Shown here piece after piece: positions 6,139 to 35,879 of a DNA stretch of 61,850 nucleotides. Both the position numbers and the translations under genes were made by a program. This DNA is from Candidatus Acidiferrum sp. (lineage in GTDB: Bacteria > Methylomirabilota > Methylomirabilia > Rokubacteriales > CSP1-6). The stretch covers positions 1 through 61,850 of the forward strand of contig DASQAL010000133.1 in assembly GCA_035635775.1 (NCBI GenBank), in the 5' to 3' direction. The notes under the pieces were generated by a model that had not been told where the DNA came from, made no database searches, and worked only from the letters and a program-made list of their open reading frames with translations. Positions within the stretch are counted from its first letter, which is position 1, and the number at the start of each line of letters is the position of its first letter.

Positions 6139-7176
6139 ATGTCCTCGACGAATCTACTCGATCTGTCACCCGCCGAGATGGAAGCCCTCGCCGAGAGCCT
6201 CGGGGCTCCACCCTACCGGGGCCGCCAGCTCGCGCAGTGGATCTTCGTCAAGGGCGTGACCGATCTGGCCGCCATGTCCGACCTGCCCAAGGACTTCCGC
6301 GCCGCCCTGGCCGCGCGGGTGAGCGTGGAGCTGCCCGAGGTCGAGCGGCGCACCCCGTCGCAGGACGGTAGCCAGAAGCTCGTGCTCCGCTACGGCGACG
6401 GCGCGCGCGTCCAGGCGGTGCTGATGCCGGACGGCGATCGGCTCACGCTCTGCGTCTCCACCCAGGTCGGCTGCGGCTTCGGCTGCGCCTTCTGCTACAC
6501 GGGAACCATGGGGCTCGAGCGCAACCTGAGCGCCGGTGAGATCGTGGCCCAGGTGATGGTGGCCCGCGAGGGGCTGGCCGCGGGCCTCCGAATCACCCAC
6601 ATCGTCTACATGGGCATGGGCGAGCCCCTCGCCAACTACACGGCCACCGTGAAGTCGCTCCGCCTCCTGACCGACCCGCAGGCCTTCGCGTTCGCGCCCC
6701 GCCGCATCACGGTCTCTACGGTGGGGCTGGTGAGCGGCATCGAGCGGCTCGCCAAGGAGAACCTCCGGGTCAACCTGGCCGTTTCGCTCCACGCCACCAG
6801 CAACGAGATCCGCGATCGGATCATGCCGGTCAATCGCGGCTTCGCGATCGAGGAGCTGCTCGCCGCCTGCCGCCGCTTCCCCCTGCCGTTCCGCCAGCGC
6901 ATGACCTTCGAGTACGTGCTGCTCGAGGGCATCAACGACTCGGCCGAGGACGCGCGGCGCCTCGTCAAGCTGCTGAAGGGCATCCGCGGCAAGATCAACC
7001 TGATCCCGTTCAACGACTGGGAGGGCTCGAGCTTCGCGCGGCCGCCGCTGGCGCGGATCCTCGATTTCCAGACCGTGCTGCTCGAGCACGGCATCCGGGC
7101 GACCGTCCGGTGGAGCAAGGGCGAGGATATCGGCGCCGCCTGCGGTCAGCTCCGCGAGGCCGCGGTCCCCGCATGA
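6139..7176 (+). CDS. rlmN: Dual-specificity 23S rRNA/tRNA methyltransferase RlmN (radical SAM)
   Basis: CVSTQVGCGFGCAFC, MGMGEPL, SLHA, YVLLEGINDS, NLIPFN, DIGAACGQL. Alternative start is GTG 6133. Confidence 0.95.
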   Translation: MSSTNLLDLSPAEMEALAESLGAPPYRGRQLAQWIFVKGVTDLAAMSDLPKDFRAALAARVSVELPEVERRTPSQDGSQKLVLRYGDGARVQAVLMPDGDRLTLCVSTQVGCGFGCAFCYTGTMGLERNLSAGEIVAQVMVAREGLAAGLRITHIVYMGMGEPLANYTATVKSLRLLTDPQAFAFAPRRITVSTVGLVSGIERLAKENLRVNLAVSLHATSNEIRDRIMPVNRGFAIEELLAACRRFPLPFRQRMTFEYVLLEGINDSAEDARRLVKLLKGIRGKINLIPFNDWEGSSFARPPLARILDFQTVLLEHGIRATVRWSKGEDIGAACGQLREAAVPA

Positions 7177-8498
7177 GCGCGCCGGTGACGGTGGCGCTGG
7201 CCACCCTCGGCTGCCGCCTCAACCAGGTCGAGTCCCAGGAGATCGGCGCGCTGCTGGAAGGCCGCGGCTTCCGGGTGGTGGACCCCGGGGCCCACGCTCA
7301 GGTGTACGTGATCAACACCTGCACCGTCACCGGCCGCGCGGATTTCTCCGATCGCCAGCTCATCCGCCGCATCGCCCGCGAGAACCCGGAGGCCTATCTG
7401 GTCGTGACCGGCTGCTACGCCCAGACCGACCCGGAGGCGGCCGCCGTGATCGCCGGGGTGGACCTGGTGGTGGGCAATCAGGAGAAGTACCGCCTGCCCG
7501 AGCTGCTCGGCTCGCTGACCAAGCGGGCACGGCCCGCGGTGGCGGTGGGAGATATCGGGGCCGCCCGCGAGGTCCCGATCGCGCCCTTCGCACGGATGGC
7601 GGGCCGCTCGCGCGCCTTCGTGAAGATCCAGGACGGCTGCCAGCACCGCTGCGCCTTCTGCATCGTGCCGGCCGCGCGCGGGCGGAGCCGGAGCCAGGAG
7701 CCCAAGGTCGTGCTCGACCAGGTGCGCGCCCTCGCGGCCGCCGGCCACCTCGACGTCACGCTCACCGGGGTGGACATCGGCCACTACGGCTGGGATCTCT
7801 ACCCGCGCACCACGCTGGCCGCCCTCCTCCGGGAGCTCGCGGAGGTGGAAGGCCTCCGGTGGCTGCGCCTCTCCTCGGTGCTCCCCTCCTACTTCACGCC
7901 CGAGCTGGTCGACGCGGTGACGACGCTGCCGATGATGGCGCCCCATCTTCACCTGCCGCTGCAGAGCGGCAGCGACCGCGTGCTGCGCCTGATGCGGCGG
8001 CCCTACCACACCGGCATGTACCGGGCCCTCGTGGACCGGCTGGCCTCGGCGGTGCCCGGACTGGGCCTCGGCGCCGACGTCATCGTGGGACACCCGGGCG
8101 AGACCGCGGAAGACTTCGACGCGACGATGCGCTTCGTCGAGGCACTCCCGTTCTCGTCGCTCCACGTCTTCTCCTATTCGGACCGGAAGGGGACCGAGGC
8201 GGCACGCCGGCCCGATCACGTGGCGGGGCCGGTAATCCGCGAGCGGAGCCGGCGACTGCGCCGGCTCGGCGCCGAGAAGAGCCTGGCCTTCCGCCGCGGG
8301 CTGGTCGGCCGCCGGCGCGAGGCGGTGGTGCTGGACGCGCGCGATCGGCGGACCGGGCTGCTCGCCGGCCTCACCGACAACTACGTCGAGGTACTCTTCG
8401 ACGGCCCCGACACGCTCGGCCGCCGGGTCGTGCCGCTCACGATCACGGAGGCCCGCGCGGACCGCACCCACGGGCAGCTCGAGGAGATCGGTGCATGA
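7173..8498 (+). CDS. mtaB: tRNA t6A37 methylthiotransferase MtaB
   Basis: TLGCRLNQVES, NTCTVT, TGCYAQ, KIQDGCQHRCAFC, HLPLQSGS, C-terminal TRAM-like region; ATGA overlap with rlmN. Confidence 0.9.
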   Translation: MSAPVTVALATLGCRLNQVESQEIGALLEGRGFRVVDPGAHAQVYVINTCTVTGRADFSDRQLIRRIARENPEAYLVVTGCYAQTDPEAAAVIAGVDLVVGNQEKYRLPELLGSLTKRARPAVAVGDIGAAREVPIAPFARMAGRSRAFVKIQDGCQHRCAFCIVPAARGRSRSQEPKVVLDQVRALAAAGHLDVTLTGVDIGHYGWDLYPRTTLAALLRELAEVEGLRWLRLSSVLPSYFTPELVDAVTTLPMMAPHLHLPLQSGSDRVLRLMRRPYHTGMYRALVDRLASAVPGLGLGADVIVGHPGETAEDFDATMRFVEALPFSSLHVFSYSDRKGTEAARRPDHVAGPVIRERSRRLRRLGAEKSLAFRRGLVGRRREAVVLDARDRRTGLLAGLTDNYVEVLFDGPDTLGRRVVPLTITEARADRTHGQLEEIGA

Positions 8499-28069: not shown

Positions 28070-29098
28070 TCAGGGCGCCTTGCCGACCAGGTTGAGTACG
28101 CGGCCGGCCCGCAGCACCGTCACCGTGATGGGCACGCCCGGGGTCAGGCGCTGCAGGTGCTCCCGCATCCGGTTGTAGTCGGCGAGGTTCCCGGTGGGGA
28201 TGCCGTCCACCGCGAGCAGGATGTCTCCGCCAACCACCAGCGTCTGGCCGTCGATCGTGGCGGTCCGGTTCCCGCCGCGAATCCCCGCCTCCTCGGCGGG
28301 CGAGCCCTTGGCCACGGTCTTGACCAGGAAGCCCTCGGGCTGGGGCAGGTTGAAGATCGCGGCGAGGTCGCCAGAGAGGGTGTGGCCCTCGAGTCCGCTC
28401 CAGATGGAGCGCCGGGCGAGCAGGAGATCCTTGGCGGTGTTGATCGTCACCACGAAGCCGAGCCCCTCGCTCCCGCCGCCCTTCGAGATGTTGTGGCTCA
28501 CGATCCCGATGACGTCGCCCGCGATGCTGAACAGGGGCCCGCCGGAGTTGCCGGTGTTGATGGTGGCGTCGGTCTGGAAGAACTCGGCCAGGGGGAAGGC
28601 GGGGTACACGCTGTTCGGCGGCCAGCGGGCACTGACGTAGCCGACGCTCAGCGAGTACGCGAGCCCGTACGGCGCGCCCACCACCAGCACCTGGTCGCCC
28701 ACCCGGACCGAGCTCGAGTTGGCGAGGCGGGCGACCTTGACGCCCGCGGGCACGCGCTCGAGCTGGAGCAGCGAGAGGTCGGCGGCGGGCTCGGAGGCGA
28801 CGACGCGCGCCTTCACGGCCTCGCCCCCGATGAACTCCACGGTGATCTCGTCCATCGCGTGAACGACGTGGGCCGCCGTCATCACCTTGCCGTCGGCCGA
28901 GATCAGCACACCGGAGCCGATCTCTCCGAAGCGGACCTGGCCGGACGCGGCCACGTCCCGCCCGCGAGAGCGGATCACGACGACGGAGGGGCTCACCCGG
29001 CGGAAGACGTCACCCACCGCCTGGGCCCCGGCCGACACCGGCTGCCCGAGCGTGACGAGGGTGGCGAGCAGGAGAAGCGCGATGAACCGAACGGTCAT
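28070..29098 (-). CDS. HtrA/DegP-like S1C serine protease with one PDZ domain
   Basis: Signal peptide; GSGVLI, TAAHVV, DLSLL, QTDATINTGNSGGPL, SPAEEAGI (PDZ); GGAGG RBS. Confidence 0.92.
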   Translation of the reverse strand: MTVRFIALLLLATLVTLGQPVSAGAQAVGDVFRRVSPSVVVIRSRGRDVAASGQVRFGEIGSGVLISADGKVMTAAHVVHAMDEITVEFIGGEAVKARVVASEPAADLSLLQLERVPAGVKVARLANSSSVRVGDQVLVVGAPYGLAYSLSVGYVSARWPPNSVYPAFPLAEFFQTDATINTGNSGGPLFSIAGDVIGIVSHNISKGGGSEGLGFVVTINTAKDLLLARRSIWSGLEGHTLSGDLAAIFNLPQPEGFLVKTVAKGSPAEEAGIRGGNRTATIDGQTLVVGGDILLAVDGIPTGNLADYNRMREHLQRLTPGVPITVTVLRAGRVLNLVGKAP

Positions 29099-29418: not shown

Positions 29419-29744
29419 GTGACCCAGAGCTGCGCCTTCTGCCGCATCGCCGCGAAGGAAAGCCCCGCCGAGATCGAGTACGAGGACGATCAGGTCGTGG
29501 CGTTCCGGGACCTGTACCCGAAGGCGCCGATCCACCTGCTGATCGTCCCGAAGCGCCACATCGAGTCACTCGCACGGCTCGAGCCCCGCGACACCGAAGT
29601 GATCGGCCGGTGCATGCAGGTGGCGCGGCTCCTCGGCGAGCGCACCGGGTACGCCGAGCGGGGCTACCGCGTGTCCTGCAACACGGGGCCCGAGGGCGGG
29701 CAGGTGGTCTACCACATCCACTTCCACTTCACCGCCGGCCGCCG

Positions 29745-29748
<4 letters not shown>
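29419..29748 (+). CDS. HIT (histidine triad) family hydrolase, Hint-like
   Basis: CAFCRI, AFRDLYPKAPIHLLIVPKRH, GQVVYHIHFH; GGAGG RBS and GTG start. Confidence 0.92.
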
Positions 29749-30484
<736 letters not shown>

Positions 30485-30488
<4 letters not shown>

Positions 30489-31237
30489 GCCGCGGCAGCC
30501 GCTGGGCGGCCTGGGTGGTCATCCTGGGGGCCATCGCCTGGTCGGCGGTGGAGACGGAAGTCTCGCTGAGCCGCATGATCGAGGGCCTGCCATTCATGTG
30601 GGACTTCTTGCGCCGCATGGTCCCGCCCGATCTCTCGGTCCTGGGGAACGCGCTCCGCGGGGCGATGGAGACCATCCAGATCGCGGTGGTCGGCACGGCG
30701 GTGGCGGCGGTGCTGGCGCTGCCGCTGGGCTTCGCGGCCGCCCGCAACGCGGCGCCGCCCTGGCTCTTCTACTGGGCGCGCAGCCTGCTCAATGCCTTCC
30801 GCGCGGTGGACACGCTCGTCTACGCCCTGTTCTTCGTGGCCGCGGTCGGCCTCGGCCCGTTCCCCGGCGTGCTGGCGGTGATGGTCTACACGGCCACCGT
30901 GCTGGCCAAGCTGTACTCGGAGGCCATCGAGGCCATCGAGCCGGGGCCGGTGGAGGCGGTGCGGGCGACGGGCGCGACGACGCTGCAGGTCCTTCGCTGG
31001 GGCGTGCTGCCGCAGCTCATGCCGCAGTTCCTGTCCTTCACGCTGTACCGCTTCGAGACGAATATCCGAGCGGCGGCGGTCCTGGGCTTCGTGGGGGCGG
31101 GGGGCATCGGCTTCTACATCCAGACGTACCTGCGGCTGCTGAACTATCCCGCGGCGGCGACCGTCCTCCTCGTGCTGATCGGGCTGGTCATGATCGTGGA
31201 CTTCGCGTCGTCCCGGCTCCGGGCCCGCCTCGTCTGA
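30485..31237 (+). CDS. phnE: Phosphonate-type ABC transporter permease
   Basis: GLGPFPGVLA, AKLYSEAIE, EAVRATGA, YRFETNIRAAAVLGFVGAGGIG. Confidence 0.9.
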
Positions 31238-31249
31238 GCGCGGAACCAG

Positions 31250-31285
31250 AAAAAGAAACGGCCCCGGGGGATCGCCCCGGGGCCG
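31250..31285 (-). terminator. Intrinsic terminator of the repeat-protein gene (possibly bidirectional)
   Basis: 11-bp stem CGGCCCCGGGG/CCCCGGGGCCG followed on the minus strand by TTTCTTTTT. Confidence 0.8.
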
Positions 31286-31305
31286 GTCGTCGCGTCGTCG
31301 GACTG

Positions 31306-32073
31306 CTACTTCTTCAGCATCTCCATCGCCGCCTTGGCCTTGTCGGTCGCCAGCGTGGAGTTCCCGGCCTTGCAAGCCGCCTCGGCCTCGCTCACGAGAC
31401 CAGAAGCCTTCTTGAAGTCGGCAGAGCGGGGGGCCTGCACATCCTGGGCGCGCGGGGCCTGGACATCCTGGGCCCGAGGAGTCTGGATGTTCTGACCACG
31501 AGGAGCCTGCACGTCCTGGCCACGAGGAGCCTGCACTTCCTGACCACGCGGCGCCTGAATGTCCTGGCTACGCGGCGCCTGTACGTCCTGGGCGCGAGGA
31601 GCCTGGATGTTCTGACCGCGAGGAGCCTGCACGTCCTGGCTACGAGGAGCCTGAATGTCCTGACCACGCGGGGCCTGAATGTCCTGGCTGCGCGGGGCCT
31701 GCACATCCTGGCTACGCGGAGCCTGGATGTTCTGACCGCGAGGAGCCTGCACATCCTGGCTACGAGGAGCCTGCACATCCTGACCACGCGGGGCCTGGAT
31801 GTCCTGGCTCCGCGGCGCCTGCACGTCCTGTGAACGGGCGCCCGCCAGCGAGCGGGGAGCCTGGACGTCCTGGCTACGCGGGGCCTGCACGTCCTGCGAC
31901 CGAGCACCCGCCAGGGAGCGGGGCGCCTGCACGTCCTGGCTCTTGGCGGTCTGCGTCAGCATCGCCTTCGCCGACGCCACCTCGGGGGGGCAGGAGGTCT
32001 GCGCCATCCCGACCGTGGCCGAGAGGGAGAAGACCGTCACTACACTCATCGTCGCTGCAAGCAACTTTCTCAT
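31306..32073 (-). CDS. Secreted 255-aa protein: signal peptide, two-Cys helical shell, 20 octapeptide repeats [SGA]Q[DNE][VI]Q[AT]PR
   Basis: ATG 32073 with AAAGGA RBS; Sec signal MRKLLAATMSVVTVFSLSATVGMA; QTSCPPEVASAKAML...; repeat array; ...ASGLVSEAEAACKAGNSTLATDKAKAAMEMLKK. Confidence 0.9.
   Translation of the reverse strand: MRKLLAATMSVVTVFSLSATVGMAQTSCPPEVASAKAMLTQTAKSQDVQAPRSLAGARSQDVQAPRSQDVQAPRSLAGARSQDVQAPRSQDIQAPRGQDVQAPRSQDVQAPRGQNIQAPRSQDVQAPRSQDIQAPRGQDIQAPRSQDVQAPRGQNIQAPRAQDVQAPRSQDIQAPRGQEVQAPRGQDVQAPRGQNIQTPRAQDVQAPRAQDVQAPRSADFKKASGLVSEAEAACKAGNSTLATDKAKAAMEMLKK
31426..31941 (-). repeat. Coding tandem repeat: 20 x 24 nt units plus two 18-nt SLAGAR units
   Basis: Counted from the translation; units differ mainly at synonymous positions. 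Confidence 0.95.
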
Positions 32074-32165
32074 CGTTGTTTCCGTCCTTTCTGACTGCGT
32101 TCTCACTGCGTTTTCCACTGGGGTTCTTCTCCTGGCCCCTGGGGCCCCAACTCGCAGCCATAGGA

Positions 32166-32182
32166 TGCACCCGCGATGCCAG
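32166..32182 (-). promoter_or_regulatory. Candidate sigma54 (-24/-12) promoter of the repeat-protein gene
   Basis: CTGGCATCGCGGGTGCA: GG-N10-GC spacing exact, several mismatches to YTGGCACGRNNNTTGCW. Confidence 0.55.
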
Positions 32183-32210
32183 GGGATCTTCAGACTTACC
32201 TAGTCTTTAG

Positions 32211-32223
32211 TTTCAACATGTTA
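32211..32223 (+). promoter_or_regulatory. Candidate IHF-binding site
   Basis: TTTCAACATGTTA versus WATCAANNNNTTR (one mismatch), in an AT-rich patch about 30 nt upstream of the -24 element. Confidence 0.4.
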
Positions 32224-32331
32224 TGGCCCGTACCGCCACCCGGACCCTGGCACGACAAAGGCGTTCTGCCCGGCATGCCCCCGACAGATGACCCGGCAAA
32301 CTGTCTGGGGCTCTGGTACCGTGTAGCGGCA

Positions 32332-33684
32332 ATGAGCCCCTCCATCGGCAGATGCGCCGTAGGCGTCTGCGCGATCGCCTTCCTCCTTTATACGCTCGGT
32401 GGGTGCACGACGGCGCCGCCCGCGCCGGGATCGCGCCAGGGGCTGCCCGCGCCCATCCGGGAAGTGCTTCCCAACGGCATGCGGCTCATCATCCAGGAGC
32501 ACCGCGCCGCGGCCACTGTCGCGATTCATCTGTGGACTGGAGTCGGCGGGCGCGACGAGGCGGTCGGAGAGCGCGGCTTCTCGCACTTCGCGGAGCACAT
32601 GCTCTTCAAGGGCACCGAGACGCGGCCGCGCGGATTCGTCGAGCGCGACGTCGAGGCGGTGGGCGGGCGCACCAACGCGGGCACTTCCAACGACTACACC
32701 TTCTACTACCTGCTACTGCCCGCGACGCGCACCGCACAAGGGATCTCGACGATCGCGGACATGGTGCTGAACTCCGTCTTCGATGCCACCGAGCTGGCGC
32801 GCGAGCGCGACGTGGTCTTCGAGGAGGTGCGGCTCAACGAGGACAATCCGCGCGCGTCCCTGGGGCGCCAGCTCTACCATCTGCTCTACCAGGGCCATCC
32901 CTACGGCCGCCCCGTGCTGGGTGACGCGGCCGACCTGCGCGGCGCCACCCAGGAGACGCTGCGCGGCTTCTACAAGCGCCACTACGTGCCGGAGAACATG
33001 GCGCTGGTCGTGGTCGGTCCCGTCAACCCGGCGGAGGTCCGCGCCGCCGCGCTCGCCGTCTTCGGCGCGCTCCCCCGGGCCGGCTACACGCGGCAGCCGC
33101 TGCCACCCACGGTGGCGCTCGATGGCGTGCGCACGCGGTCGGTGGAGCGCCCCGAGCGACAGACGCAGCTCGGCCTCGCGTGGCTGGCGCCGCCGCTCGG
33201 TCATCCCGACATGCCCGCGGTGGACGTGCTCAGCCACATCCTGGGCGGCCCGCGCAGCTCCCGGCTCAACCAGGCGCTCCGGGAGAAGGCCCGGCTGGTC
33301 TCCGGGATCAGCGGCTGGTACGGCGCGCTCCAGGGCGCGGGCGCGGTCGGCGTCACCGCCCAGCTCGAGAGTGGGGACCATGAGGCGGTGGAGCGCGGCA
33401 TCCTGGCCGAGATCCGACGTATCCAGGCCGATGGGGTGACGCCGGAGGAGCTGGCCCGCGCGATCACCGCCTCCGAGGCCCAGCGCGAGTTCTCGCGCGA
33501 GACGGTGGAAGGCCTGGCCCTGGCGTACGGCCGCGCCGAGATCACCTGGAGCCTGGAGGCCGAGCGCGGCTACGTGGATCGCGTGCGCGCGGTGACGCGC
33601 GGGCAGGTGCAGGAGGCGGCGCGCCGCTACCTCACCGACTCCTACGCGCGGCTGGCCTTCGTGCCGCGGGGCCGCGCGCAGTGA
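32332..33684 (+). CDS. M16 (pitrilysin/insulinase) family zinc peptidase, catalytic subunit, predicted lipoprotein
   Basis: Lipobox LGGC; LPNGMRL; HFAEH (HxxEH); NAGTSNDYT; ERDVVFEE; HPYGRPVLG; YVPENM. TG-g-TACCGT -10 is 9 nt before the ATG. Confidence 0.9.
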   Translation: MSPSIGRCAVGVCAIAFLLYTLGGCTTAPPAPGSRQGLPAPIREVLPNGMRLIIQEHRAAATVAIHLWTGVGGRDEAVGERGFSHFAEHMLFKGTETRPRGFVERDVEAVGGRTNAGTSNDYTFYYLLLPATRTAQGISTIADMVLNSVFDATELARERDVVFEEVRLNEDNPRASLGRQLYHLLYQGHPYGRPVLGDAADLRGATQETLRGFYKRHYVPENMALVVVGPVNPAEVRAAALAVFGALPRAGYTRQPLPPTVALDGVRTRSVERPERQTQLGLAWLAPPLGHPDMPAVDVLSHILGGPRSSRLNQALREKARLVSGISGWYGALQGAGAVGVTAQLESGDHEAVERGILAEIRRIQADGVTPEELARAITASEAQREFSRETVEGLALAYGRAEITWSLEAERGYVDRVRAVTRGQVQEAARRYLTDSYARLAFVPRGRAQ

Positions 33685-34982
33685 GCCGGCGGGACGTGGC
33701 CGCGCTGGCGCTGGCCGTGGCCCTCGGGTGGGCCGGGGCCGGGAGTGCGGCGGCCCAGCCGGCTCGCCAGCAGCTCCCCGGCGGCCTCACCGTGCTGCTG
33801 CGCGAGAACACCGCGACCCCGGTGGCGGCGGCCTCGCTCTTCGTGCGGATGGGCTCGCGCTGGGAGACCGAGGACGACGCGGGCATCAGCCATCTGCTCC
33901 AGCAGGTGCTGGTCAAGGGGACCGAGCGCCGCTCGGCGCTCCAGATCGCGGAGACCGCGGAGAATCTGGGCGGCGGGATCTCCACGTCGGCCGACCTGGA
34001 CTACTCGGAGATCCGCGCCACCGCGCTCGCGCGAAACTGGAAAGCGATGCTCGAGCTGATCGCCGACGTCGCGCTCCGGCCCACGCTGCCCGCCGCCGAG
34101 ATCGACGGCGAGCGCAGCGCCACCCTGACCGCGCTCCGCAGCCGGCAGGACCAGCCGTTCTCCCTGGCCATGGATACGCTCATGAACCGCGTCTACGGGG
34201 ATCACCCGTACGGCCGCCCGATCCTGGGCCGGCCCGGCGCGCTGGAGCGCATCGACCGCGCCCGCCTGGTTGCGCATCACCAGCGCTTCTACCGTGGCCC
34301 GCGCATGATCCTGGCCGTGAGCGGTGACGTCGACGCGCGCCAGGTGATGGCGGAGGCGGCGCGCCTCTTCGCCGACGCCCCCGCGGGCCCCGCGGAGGCC
34401 GAGCCCACGCTCCCCGCGGCGGCGGCGCGCGCGGACCGCACCGTGATCGTGAAGCCGTCGGCCCAGGCGCAGGTCCTGGCCGGCTTCCTCGCCCCGCCCA
34501 CCTCGCACGCCGACTATGCGGCGGTGAAGGTGCTGGCCACCGCGCTGGGCGGGGGCATGGCCGCGCGGCTCTTCACCGAGGTGCGCGACAAGCAGGGCCT
34601 GGCCTACTCGACGGGCGGCGCCTACCCGTCGCGTCTGGGCCCGGGCGTGCTCTTCACCCAGCTCGGCACCGCGCCGGCCAACCAGACCCGGGCGGAAGCC
34701 GCGATGCTGGGGGAGCTCGAGCGCATCCGCCGCGATCCCCTGAGCCCGCCCGAGCTCGCCCGCGCCAAGGGGTACCTGCTCGGGCAGTTCGCGCTGGACC
34801 GGCGCACCAACGCGCGGCTGGCCTGGTACGACGCCTTCTTCGAGGCGCTCGGGGTCGGGCCCGGATTCGCCGAGCGCTACGAGCGCGCGGTGGAGGCGGT
34901 GACGGTCGAGGACGTGCAGCGGGTCGCGCGGACCTACCTGAGCGCGCCCACCGTGGTCACGCTCGGCCCCGCGGCGCCGTAG
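33681..34982 (+). CDS. M16 family peptidase, non-catalytic partner subunit, predicted exported
   Basis: Signal-like N-terminus; HLLQQ in place of HxxEH; HPYGRP; LGGGMAARLFTEVRDKQGLAYS; GTGA overlap with the catalytic subunit. Confidence 0.88.
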   Translation: MSRRDVAALALAVALGWAGAGSAAAQPARQQLPGGLTVLLRENTATPVAAASLFVRMGSRWETEDDAGISHLLQQVLVKGTERRSALQIAETAENLGGGISTSADLDYSEIRATALARNWKAMLELIADVALRPTLPAAEIDGERSATLTALRSRQDQPFSLAMDTLMNRVYGDHPYGRPILGRPGALERIDRARLVAHHQRFYRGPRMILAVSGDVDARQVMAEAARLFADAPAGPAEAEPTLPAAAARADRTVIVKPSAQAQVLAGFLAPPTSHADYAAVKVLATALGGGMAARLFTEVRDKQGLAYSTGGAYPSRLGPGVLFTQLGTAPANQTRAEAAMLGELERIRRDPLSPPELARAKGYLLGQFALDRRTNARLAWYDAFFEALGVGPGFAERYERAVEAVTVEDVQRVARTYLSAPTVVTLGPAAP

Positions 34983-34987
34983 CGACC

Positions 34988-35683
34988 GTGTTCCCGCTCA
35001 AAGACGACAACCCGATCCACAGCACCCCGATCGTCACCATCGGCCTGATCGTGGCCAACGCGCTGGTCTTCTTCTACCAGGTCTCGCTGGAGGTGGGCGG
35101 CGTGCAGGGCGCGCGGGCCGGGCAGGCCTTCATCGAGGAGTTCGGGCTGGTGCCGTGCCGGCTCATCGGCGCCTGCCCCTCGGCGGCGGACCTGCCGTCA
35201 CCGATCCTCACGATCTTCTCCTCGATGTTCATGCACGGCGGTCTGTTCCATATCGCCGGCAACATGCTCTACCTCTGGATCTTCGGCAACAACGTCGAGG
35301 ACGTCCTGGGCCACGGCCGCTACCTGATCTTCTATCTCGCCTCCGGCGTGGCGGCCGCCCTGGCCCAGACCGCCATCGGCCCCGGCTCCCCGGTGCCCAT
35401 GGTGGGCGCGAGCGGCGCCGTGTCCGGCGTGCTCGGTGCCTATCTGCTGCTCTTCCCGCACGCCCACGTGACCACGCTGATCATCCTGGGCTTCTTCTTC
35501 CGCCTCGTGAAGATCCCCGCCGTGTTCGTGCTGGGCTTCTGGATCGTGGTCCAGGTGCTCAACGGGCTCGGCAGCTTCGGGGCGAGCGGCGGGGTGGCCT
35601 TTTTCGCCCATATCGGGGGCTTCGTGGCGGGCATGGGGCTCCTCTTCGTGCTGAGACCCCGGGCCGGCCGGCGCGCCGCCTGA
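34988..35683 (+). CDS. Rhomboid intramembrane serine protease
   Basis: MFPLKDDNP, FMHGGLFHIAGNMLYLWIFGNNVED, GASGAVSG, AHIGG. Confidence 0.93.
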   Translation: MFPLKDDNPIHSTPIVTIGLIVANALVFFYQVSLEVGGVQGARAGQAFIEEFGLVPCRLIGACPSAADLPSPILTIFSSMFMHGGLFHIAGNMLYLWIFGNNVEDVLGHGRYLIFYLASGVAAALAQTAIGPGSPVPMVGASGAVSGVLGAYLLLFPHAHVTTLIILGFFFRLVKIPAVFVLGFWIVVQVLNGLGSFGASGGVAFFAHIGGFVAGMGLLFVLRPRAGRRAA

Positions 35684-35709
35684 ATTCGTTCCGGGAGGGG
35701 GTTCGGCTA

Positions 35710-35715
35710 TATAAT
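35710..35715 (+). promoter_or_regulatory. -10 element for the tlyA-nadK unit
   Basis: Perfect TATAAT. Confidence 0.6.
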
Positions 35716-35762
35716 CGTGACCGTTGGAATTTTGGTACGGTCTCAGGGGCTTAGGAGCCCGC

Positions 35763-35879
35763 ATGAACGCGGTCGAGCCGTTCCCTCACCGGCAGCGCTC
35801 CACCGTCTTTCTCCGCGATCGTCCGCCCCGCCATCTCCTGGCCGAAGGCGCGGACGGCTCAAGAAAGGAGCCGGCGTGA
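35763..35879 (+). CDS. Putative 38-aa upstream ORF coupled to tlyA
   Basis: AGGAG RBS, ATG, MNAVEPFPHRQRSTVFLRDRPPRHLLAEGADGSRKEPA; stop overlaps the tlyA GTG (GTGA). Confidence 0.3.
   Translation: MNAVEPFPHRQRSTVFLRDRPPRHLLAEGADGSRKEPA

Follow-up and report, generated by a model that had tools for sequence, protein, structure and literature searches.

A predicted exported M16B peptidase pair, divergent from a secreted octapeptide-repeat protein gene, in a Rokubacteria contig

Results

The window analyzed here, a 61,850-nt stretch of contig DASQAL010000133.1, carries two adjacent genes, designated M16a and M16b, which encode the subunits of a predicted exported peptidase pair of the M16B kind, and, divergent from them, a gene for a predicted secreted repeat protein that we call REP. 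The G+C content of the window is approximately 71%, and close relatives of its proteins are labeled Candidatus Rokuibacteriota or Methylomirabilota. No second REP or M16 gene was found in the window. The M16a start was set at the ATG at 32332, which aligns across related loci in a 24-locus intergenic alignment and lies 258 nt from the start of REP; a longer open reading frame beginning at 32176, which runs through conserved noncoding elements, was rejected. The features of the locus are as follows.

32332 to 33684, plus strand: M16a, putative catalytic M16B subunit and predicted lipoprotein, 450 aa
32395 to 32406, plus strand: M16a lipobox L22-G-G-C25
32584 to 32598, plus strand: M16a zinc/catalytic motif H85-F-A-E-H89, with the distal ligand E165 at nt 32824 to 32826
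33681 to 34982, plus strand: M16b, putative noncatalytic partner with a signal peptidase I-type signal peptide, 433 aa
33891 to 33905, plus strand: M16b degenerate motif H71-L-L-Q-Q75 in place of HxxEH
34566 to 34607, plus strand: M16b R/Y substrate-binding region RLFTEVRDKQGLAY (R302, Y309)
31306 to 32073, minus strand: REP, secreted repeat protein of 255 aa with a signal peptide, helices, and octapeptide units
32074 to 32331: REP/M16a divergent intergenic region, 258 nt, with conserved blocks in the 24-locus alignment
32166 to 32181, minus strand: sigma-54-type promoter of REP, TGGCATCGCGGGTGCA
31259 to 31285, minus strand: intrinsic terminator of REP, 11 G-C pairs and then the T-run TTTCTTTTT
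34988 to 35683, plus strand: rhomboid intramembrane serine protease (Pfam Rhomboid, E value 4.1e-32)
29610 to 31237: PhnC/PhnE-like ATP-binding cassette (ABC) ATPase and permease genes, adjoining REP and without a neighboring binding-protein gene
28070 to 29098: HtrA-type (HtrA/trypsin-like) exported protease, beyond REP

Both proteins of the pair contain both M16 domains, well above the Pfam gathering scores (Peptidase_M16, E value 5.7e-28, and Peptidase_M16_C, 1.1e-37, in M16a; 4.2e-23 and 4.9e-34, respectively, in M16b). To judge from sequence, these E values and the conservation of the pair lie far beyond what chance would produce. When all PDB sequences were considered, the best match of M16a was 3AMJ_C, “zinc peptidase active subunit” (E value 3.3e-53), and those closest to M16b were BHP of Bacillus halodurans (3HDI) and 3AMJ_B, “zinc peptidase inactive subunit” (E value 1.2e-35). 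Other assignments were rejected: models for YfmF and YfmH, which belong to the 5-aminopentanol modification of EF-P (NF047422 and NF047421), scored 70 to 97 bits against cutoffs of 250 to 285, and M16a and M16b also carry export signals; the NCBIfam pitrilysin equivalog score was far under its cutoff.

The catalytic residues are divided between the two subunits. The third zinc ligand of M16a, E165, lies exactly 76 residues past H89, within ERDVVFEE, and this spacing is identical in BHP, Sph2681, and TTHA1264 (table in PMC12731061). We compared the pair across 28 Methylomirabilota loci from species-representative genomes, anchored on M16a. HFAEH is kept in the M16a orthologs except the four most divergent, which have HFVEH, HFQEH, or HYLEH; the distal motif ExxV[VI]xEE is conserved, and 26 of the 27 complete N termini contain a lipobox-type Cys. 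The N terminus of M16b is MSRRDVAALALAVALGWAGAGSAAA followed by QP, an AxA-type signal peptide. Distal glutamates are absent from M16b and from its orthologs, the great majority of which have [H/N/Y]LLQQ (HLLQH in L015 and NFLQR in L027). The signal peptide and the R/Y region of M16b occur at every locus, and the sequence RLFxE[VL]RDKxGLAY is conserved. At the corresponding place M16a reads RLVS, without the Tyr, so HxxEH and E(+76) are found in M16a only and the R/Y pair in M16b only. Only the short LGGGMAARLF precedes the R/Y region of M16b, which may lack the long glycine-rich loop of the alpha subunit of mitochondrial processing peptidase (MPP).

The two genes overlap as GTGA (M16a stop TGA at 33682 to 33684; M16b start GTG at 33681 to 33683) and are adjacent in all 28 related loci that hold both. 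Sph2681/2682-type pairs are defined by HxxEH in one subunit and a substrate-binding R/Y in the C-terminal domain of the other (PMC8960859; PMC12731061), and because the same split is present here, M16a and M16b can be assigned to this type. The original prediction, which described an exported active/inactive M16 pair from its HxxEH motif and LGGC lipobox, the HLLQQ motif and signal-like N terminus of the partner, and the GTGA overlap, is thus borne out in each of these features and in the division between an active and an inactive subunit. The pair is in itself ordinary: it belongs to a known kind of enzyme and appears to be an M16B heterodimer that is exported and anchored to the membrane, and we infer that it forms the dimer and is active.

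The original prediction also pointed to the neighboring repeat gene, and proposed a comparison of the gene order in relatives. Twenty-five of the 28 M16a-anchored loci had enough upstream sequence, and REP was divergent from M16a in 22 of them, down to approximately 52% M16a identity. A second set was anchored on REP and consisted of the best 80 metagenome loci, 55 of which were testable for M16a upstream; M16a was found there in 53. The linkage is therefore conserved among relatives, and the lack of linkage that would have told against the original prediction was not observed. The three exceptions without REP have other genes upstream of M16a, a GGDEF/GAF gene in L015 and unrelated metabolic genes in L024 and L025, and their M16 pairs retain every catalytic motif. 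Conversely, REP is unlinked to M16 in L141, where it stands beside a molybdo-enzyme operon, and in L137, where it stands beside an amidohydrolase-like gene. No repeat-protein gene was found beside the M16 pairs of L015, L024, and L025 or beside the distant pairs L029 to L064 (Myxococcales, Bacteroidia, and Opitutales).

In most loci the block HIT-PhnCE-REP-M16a-M16b-rhomboid is collinear. A rough neighbor-joining tree of M16a placed the three REP-less loci in one nested clade, with the REP-bearing L027 basal, and because of this topology the linkage can be explained by one gain and one loss. We suggest that REP was placed beside the M16 pair once, in the ancestor of this Rokubacteria lineage.

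Eight loci with the Rokubacteria-specific gene order and 58 to 87% M16a identity (L002, L003, L006, L009, L011, L016, L017, and L022) are filed under unrelated taxa, namely, Limnocylindria, Deferrimicrobiaceae, Nitrosotalea, Dormiibacterota, Verrucomicrobiia, Eisenbacteria, and Nitrosocosmicus. These contigs probably reflect binning contamination in the respective metagenome-assembled genomes.

REP consists, in order, of a signal peptide, a conserved QTSCPPEVA.AKAML segment, the repeats, and a ..EAEAACKAGN...KAKAAMEMLKK segment that is likewise conserved. The repeats comprise 20 octapeptide units of the form xQ[DNE][VI]Q[AT]PR and 2 SLAGAR units. Q2, Q5, P7, and R8 do not vary in any of the 20 units, although synonymous differences occur in the codons for A6, P7, and R8, which argues for purifying selection on the units at the protein level. 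Across loci, the copy number of the unit ranges from about 12 to about 60, and the unit shifts in concert between clades (SQDVQAPR, TQDVNAPR, and SQDIQSPR), with Q..PR always kept. Our literature search found no mention of these repeat units. The REP frame is broken within the repeats in L001 (4545 to 5728), L020 (4202 to 5625), and L028 (4486 to 5913), the last of which also has a broken M16a frame; mistakes of assembly or sequencing in this repetitive, high-GC DNA are the probable cause, and not pseudogene formation.

AlphaFold modeling from 42 sequences predicted helices at residues 30 to 47, 215 to 235, and 239 to 254 with pLDDT (predicted local distance difference test) values of 87 to 95, and repeats with values below 50, i.e., a disordered stretch of approximately 170 aa that, being disordered, should be accessible to proteases. 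C28 and C234 are invariant in the 42 homologs, and the most conserved part of the protein is the helical N- and C-terminal element that contains both. A reasonable picture from the model is that of a small helical end-piece, possibly disulfide locked, that closes a long disordered loop. A T4 gp5-type beta-helix (Pfam Gp5_trimer_C, 32 bits versus a cutoff of 30.9, with no single stretch passing) was rejected on the basis of the AlphaFold monomer, which has no strands and repeats with pLDDT below 50, although a monomer model cannot speak on a trimer; the match probably reflects the shared 8-residue period.

The sequence TGGCATCGCGGGTGCA on the REP strand (32181 to 32166) fits the sigma-54 consensus TGGCAC-N5-TTGCA and is the only match in the window. 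TGGCA[CT]-N5-[CG]TGCA occurs in 23 of 24 aligned orthologous loci, 95 to 155 nt upstream of the REP ATG. A textbook copy, TGGCATTTGGCTTGCA, precedes the RtcB-linked REP paralog (L146, 9944 to 9959), and another precedes the unlinked REP gene of L137 (upstream of 1048). Neither a GAFTGA nor an ESELFG motif of a sigma-54 activator was found in the window, and the literature search returned no mention of sigma-54 in Rokubacteria.

RNA abundance was taken from the word depth of contigs in freshwater-sediment metatranscriptomes, a crude measure. Depth was 207 to 1258 over the unique 5' part of REP and 210 to 375 over its 3' part, 3 to 7 over M16a, and 0 to 2 over PhnE. High-depth REP contigs break off at 32142 and 32157, next to the predicted sigma-54 start at about 32155, and the other end of the high-depth contig, at 31266, falls inside the terminator just after the REP stop codon. 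DNA carry-over does not account for a 50- to 100-fold change in depth from one gene to the next. Because it has its own promoter, its own terminator, and approximately 50 to 100 times the RNA of M16a, REP is monocistronic, strongly expressed, and separately regulated.

Nearer M16a, the conserved intergenic blocks include an imperfect inverted repeat, GTTCTGCCCGG...CCGGCAAAC, at about 32258 to 32305, which might be an enhancer-binding-protein (activator) site. A scan of 31150 to 35800 found no sigma-70 consensus promoters. A TACCGT/TAGGCT box 12 nt upstream of the M16a ATG is conserved; a leaderless M16a mRNA is not claimed because low-depth RNA contigs reach further upstream of it, to 32171 to 32241.

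The REP family has 1356 database matches, and distant members share the architecture and the QD[IV]Q[AS]PR unit. Seven more distant members were looked up, and six of them are not near any M16 gene; the only M16-linked one is the close ortholog P0158, whose REP is directly followed by an HtrA-like gene. The positions of the paralogs are as follows.

L145/L146: 10001 to 10582
L147: 8001 to 8630
L148: 8001 to 8486
L149: 6001 to 6483
L150: 6001 to 6510
L153: 3134 to 3916

The L145/L146 paralog follows archease-RtcB and precedes DUF2267-CBS-DksA/TraR-cytochrome c-Usp. Two others share some bases with the beginning of an FBPase gene and have BON, OsmC, Usp, and CBS genes alongside; a further one is transcribed away from GroES-GroEL; another adjoins the gene of a peptidoglycan-binding protein, and fragments of a trehalose-phosphatase are found about 2 kb from it; and the last follows a gene for an AI-2E-family transporter. 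These stress-type or envelope/transport contexts suggest a family of stress-related periplasmic proteins. The conserved folded part of REP and the stress-gene contexts of its paralogs are more in keeping with a stress-related periplasmic protein that works intact than with a disposable precursor.

On the far side of REP lie the PhnE/PhnC-like ABC pair, a HIT gene, and the HtrA-type protease, so that exported proteases are encoded to either side of REP. In L152 an HtrA-type protease gene (6841 to 8172) stands directly downstream of REP on the same strand, and weak partial HtrA matches (29 to 33% identity) possibly mark further cases after REP in L099, L131, and L142. HtrA enzymes favor a Val or an Ile where they cut, and each REP unit contains one.

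The rhomboid gene begins 5 nt after M16b and is followed by tlyA, nadK, and recN, all co-oriented and with short gaps or overlaps; tlyA-nadK-recN is a widespread housekeeping cluster, found, for example, in mycobacteria. The catalytic motifs GASG and AHIGG of the rhomboid are intact, and it is apparently an active protease. It is probably in one operon with the M16 pair, and the order M16b-rhomboid is kept in 24 of the 26 related loci that reach that far. We found no report of an M16B-rhomboid operon in the papers searched.

Discussion

We favor, with some reservation, the explanation that the M16 pair is a constitutive, periplasm-facing envelope peptidase that clears short or unfolded peptides. 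M16a would be lipid anchored via C25 and would supply the zinc site (H85, H89, and E165) and the catalytic E88, while M16b, exported by an ordinary signal peptide, has lost the zinc site and would hold the substrate backbone with R302 and Y309; neither subunit would be expected to work by itself. Translation of the two is coupled by the GTGA overlap, and the pair would head the gene string rhomboid-tlyA-nadK-recN, over which we infer the extent of the operon. REP is independently regulated, driven by sigma-54, and very highly transcribed, with disordered repeats that make it a plausible M16 substrate. Since M16a, M16b, and REP all carry export signals, the three would share the periplasm, a prediction that agrees with the common compartment originally proposed for them.

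Several observations weigh against this explanation. PhnCE is absent from L002, L021, L073, L074, L079, L099, and L131, yet REP-M16a is intact there, and in L013 to L022 an insertion separates the rhomboid gene from tlyA while REP and M16a stay together. That the two genes are kept adjacent despite the loss of neighbors is a hint of selection for staying together. REP and the M16 genes could also be regulated jointly, as the conserved intergenic blocks might indicate. “General peptide clearance,” moreover, is the default reading for such an enzyme and not a demonstration.

An alternative hypothesis, possible and unproven, is that REP is the main physiological substrate of the pair, either through release of octapeptides next to each Arg or through turnover of an abundant stress-induced protein. 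We regard this minority hypothesis as unlikely. It draws on the adjacency in both locus sets, on the export signals of all three proteins, on repeats that are predicted to be disordered and in which each unit is under purifying selection, and on the concerted change of the unit between clades with Q..PR always retained. MPP and nardilysin, both M16 enzymes, read an Arg near the cut site. The adjacency, however, can be traced to a single gain and a single loss inside a block that is collinear anyway, and we consider it weak evidence for a processing link. Six of the seven distant paralogs, and the closer REP genes of L137 and L141, are unlinked to M16, and the distant pairs L029 to L064 have no secreted-repeat gene beside them; M16 pairs that lack REP are intact. 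The promoters are separate and of different classes, with the large difference in RNA described above. Conservation within REP is highest in the helical end-piece that carries the invariant Cys residues, which is unexpected in a disposable precursor and points to a function of the intact protein, and the flanking HtrA-type proteases are equally plausible as REP proteases. The processing or degrading role originally suggested for the pair therefore keeps its footing in the linkage, the export signals, and the disorder of the repeats and loses it in the history, regulation, and conservation of REP.

The most specific form of this hypothesis, that REP is a sigma-54-induced, very abundant periplasmic polyprotein cut by the membrane-anchored M16B pair, possibly together with the rhomboid or HtrA, at every ..APR/S.. 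junction, seems to us very unlikely. If it were true, each molecule would yield 12 to about 60 copies of an octapeptide that might serve as a signal, an antimicrobial, or an osmoprotectant, and REP would be a bacterial counterpart of the eukaryotic multicopy peptide precursors, without a modifying enzyme.

We also considered that the M16 pair and the rhomboid form a module in which the rhomboid would cleave proteins anchored in the membrane, with the M16B enzyme either trimming or degrading the fragments set free or acting before the rhomboid, a proposal that we judge quite improbable. The 5-nt gap, the apparently active rhomboid, and the conserved gene order are in its favor, and the sequential cleavages by MPP and then PARL/Pcp1 in mitochondria offer a precedent. 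Against it, the distant pairs L029 to L064 and the pair of L025 have no rhomboid neighbor (in L024 the available sequence reaches only about 0.75 kb past M16b), so the M16-rhomboid link is lineage specific, like the link to REP, and no such operon has turned up in the papers searched.

Last, and scarcely credible, is a role of the pair in maturing a ribosomally synthesized and posttranslationally modified peptide (RiPP), with the precursor encoded here or elsewhere, as for PqqF/G, AlbE/F, or the lanthipeptide peptidase PttP1/P2. M16B heterodimers with the matching HxxEH/R-Y split do mature lanthipeptides and subtilosin (PMC8960859; PMC12731061), and NCBIfam gave weak matches to PqqF (TIGR02110) for M16a and to thiovarsolin for REP. 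Both assignments were rejected, with 87.9 bits versus a cutoff of 320 for PqqF and 20.9 versus 35 for thiovarsolin. No modifying enzyme is encoded within about 4 kb on either side; the neighbors are HIT, ABC transporter, HtrA, rhomboid, tlyA, nadK, and recN genes and not pqqA-E; both subunits carry export signals, as opposed to the characterized RiPP pairs, which are not known to be exported; and REP does not look like a RiPP precursor. The PqqF/PqqG analogy of the original prediction is accordingly not supported.

REP is a more unusual object than the M16 pair, in view of its sigma-54 promoter, its very high in situ transcription, and its paralogs beside stress genes. A conserved pairing of the peptidase with an abundant, disordered, secreted repeat protein would give a cheap and concrete substrate hypothesis for an uncultivated soil phylum.

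Comparison with known systems

Several M16 systems resemble the pair in part. PqqL and FusC are likewise periplasmic M16B-type enzymes of diderm bacteria, and M16a gave weak matches to their structures (6OFS and 6B05); unlike M16a and M16b, each is one polypeptide of about 920 aa, and both are linked with the TonB-dependent uptake of iron or ferredoxin, for which there are no genes at the locus. The RiPP-maturing enzymes PqqF/PqqG, AlbE/AlbF, PttP1/PttP2, and Bcn-gP1/gP2 belong to the M16 family, and the heterodimers among them share the motif split. To our knowledge, those RiPP M16B pairs that have been characterized are cytoplasmic enzymes without export signals. No modifying enzymes accompany M16a and M16b, and REP, a protein of 255 aa, is secreted and has a folded end-piece that is conserved. 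The known enzymes show that an M16B pair can act on one precursor specifically, even when its genes lie elsewhere (PMC8960859; PMC12731061).

Like the predicted M16a/M16b heterodimer, MPP combines an active beta-type and an inactive alpha-type subunit, and it cuts extended substrates at positions set by an Arg. Matches of M16a to MPP-beta have E values of approximately 1e-28 to 1e-35, at low identity. MPP-alpha uses a long glycine-rich loop, whereas Sph-type pairs have no such loop (PMC12731061).

The M16B fold family and the zinc-site spacing are shared with TTHA1264/TTHA1265 of Thermus thermophilus and with BHP of Bacillus halodurans (3EOQ, 7V4Y, and 3HDI). TTHA1264/TTHA1265 is likewise a heterodimer from neighboring genes; BHP, in contrast, is a homodimer with HxxEH and R/Y both in one chain. 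We know of no description of either as exported.

The closest counterpart is Sph2681/Sph2682 of Sphingomonas sp. A1 (3AMJ), which has two-domain subunits of approximately 430 to 450 aa encoded by adjacent genes, with HxxEH and E(+76) in one subunit and R/Y in the other. The pair described here departs from it in the predicted lipoprotein nature of M16a, the signal peptide of M16b, and the overlap of the genes, with a rhomboid gene next in line. Physiological substrates are established for only a few bacterial M16B heterodimers, and these cases, in lanthipeptide and subtilosin maturation, proved specific. In vitro, Sph2681/Sph2682 cuts endorphin, insulin, dynorphin, and bradykinin (PMC12731061).

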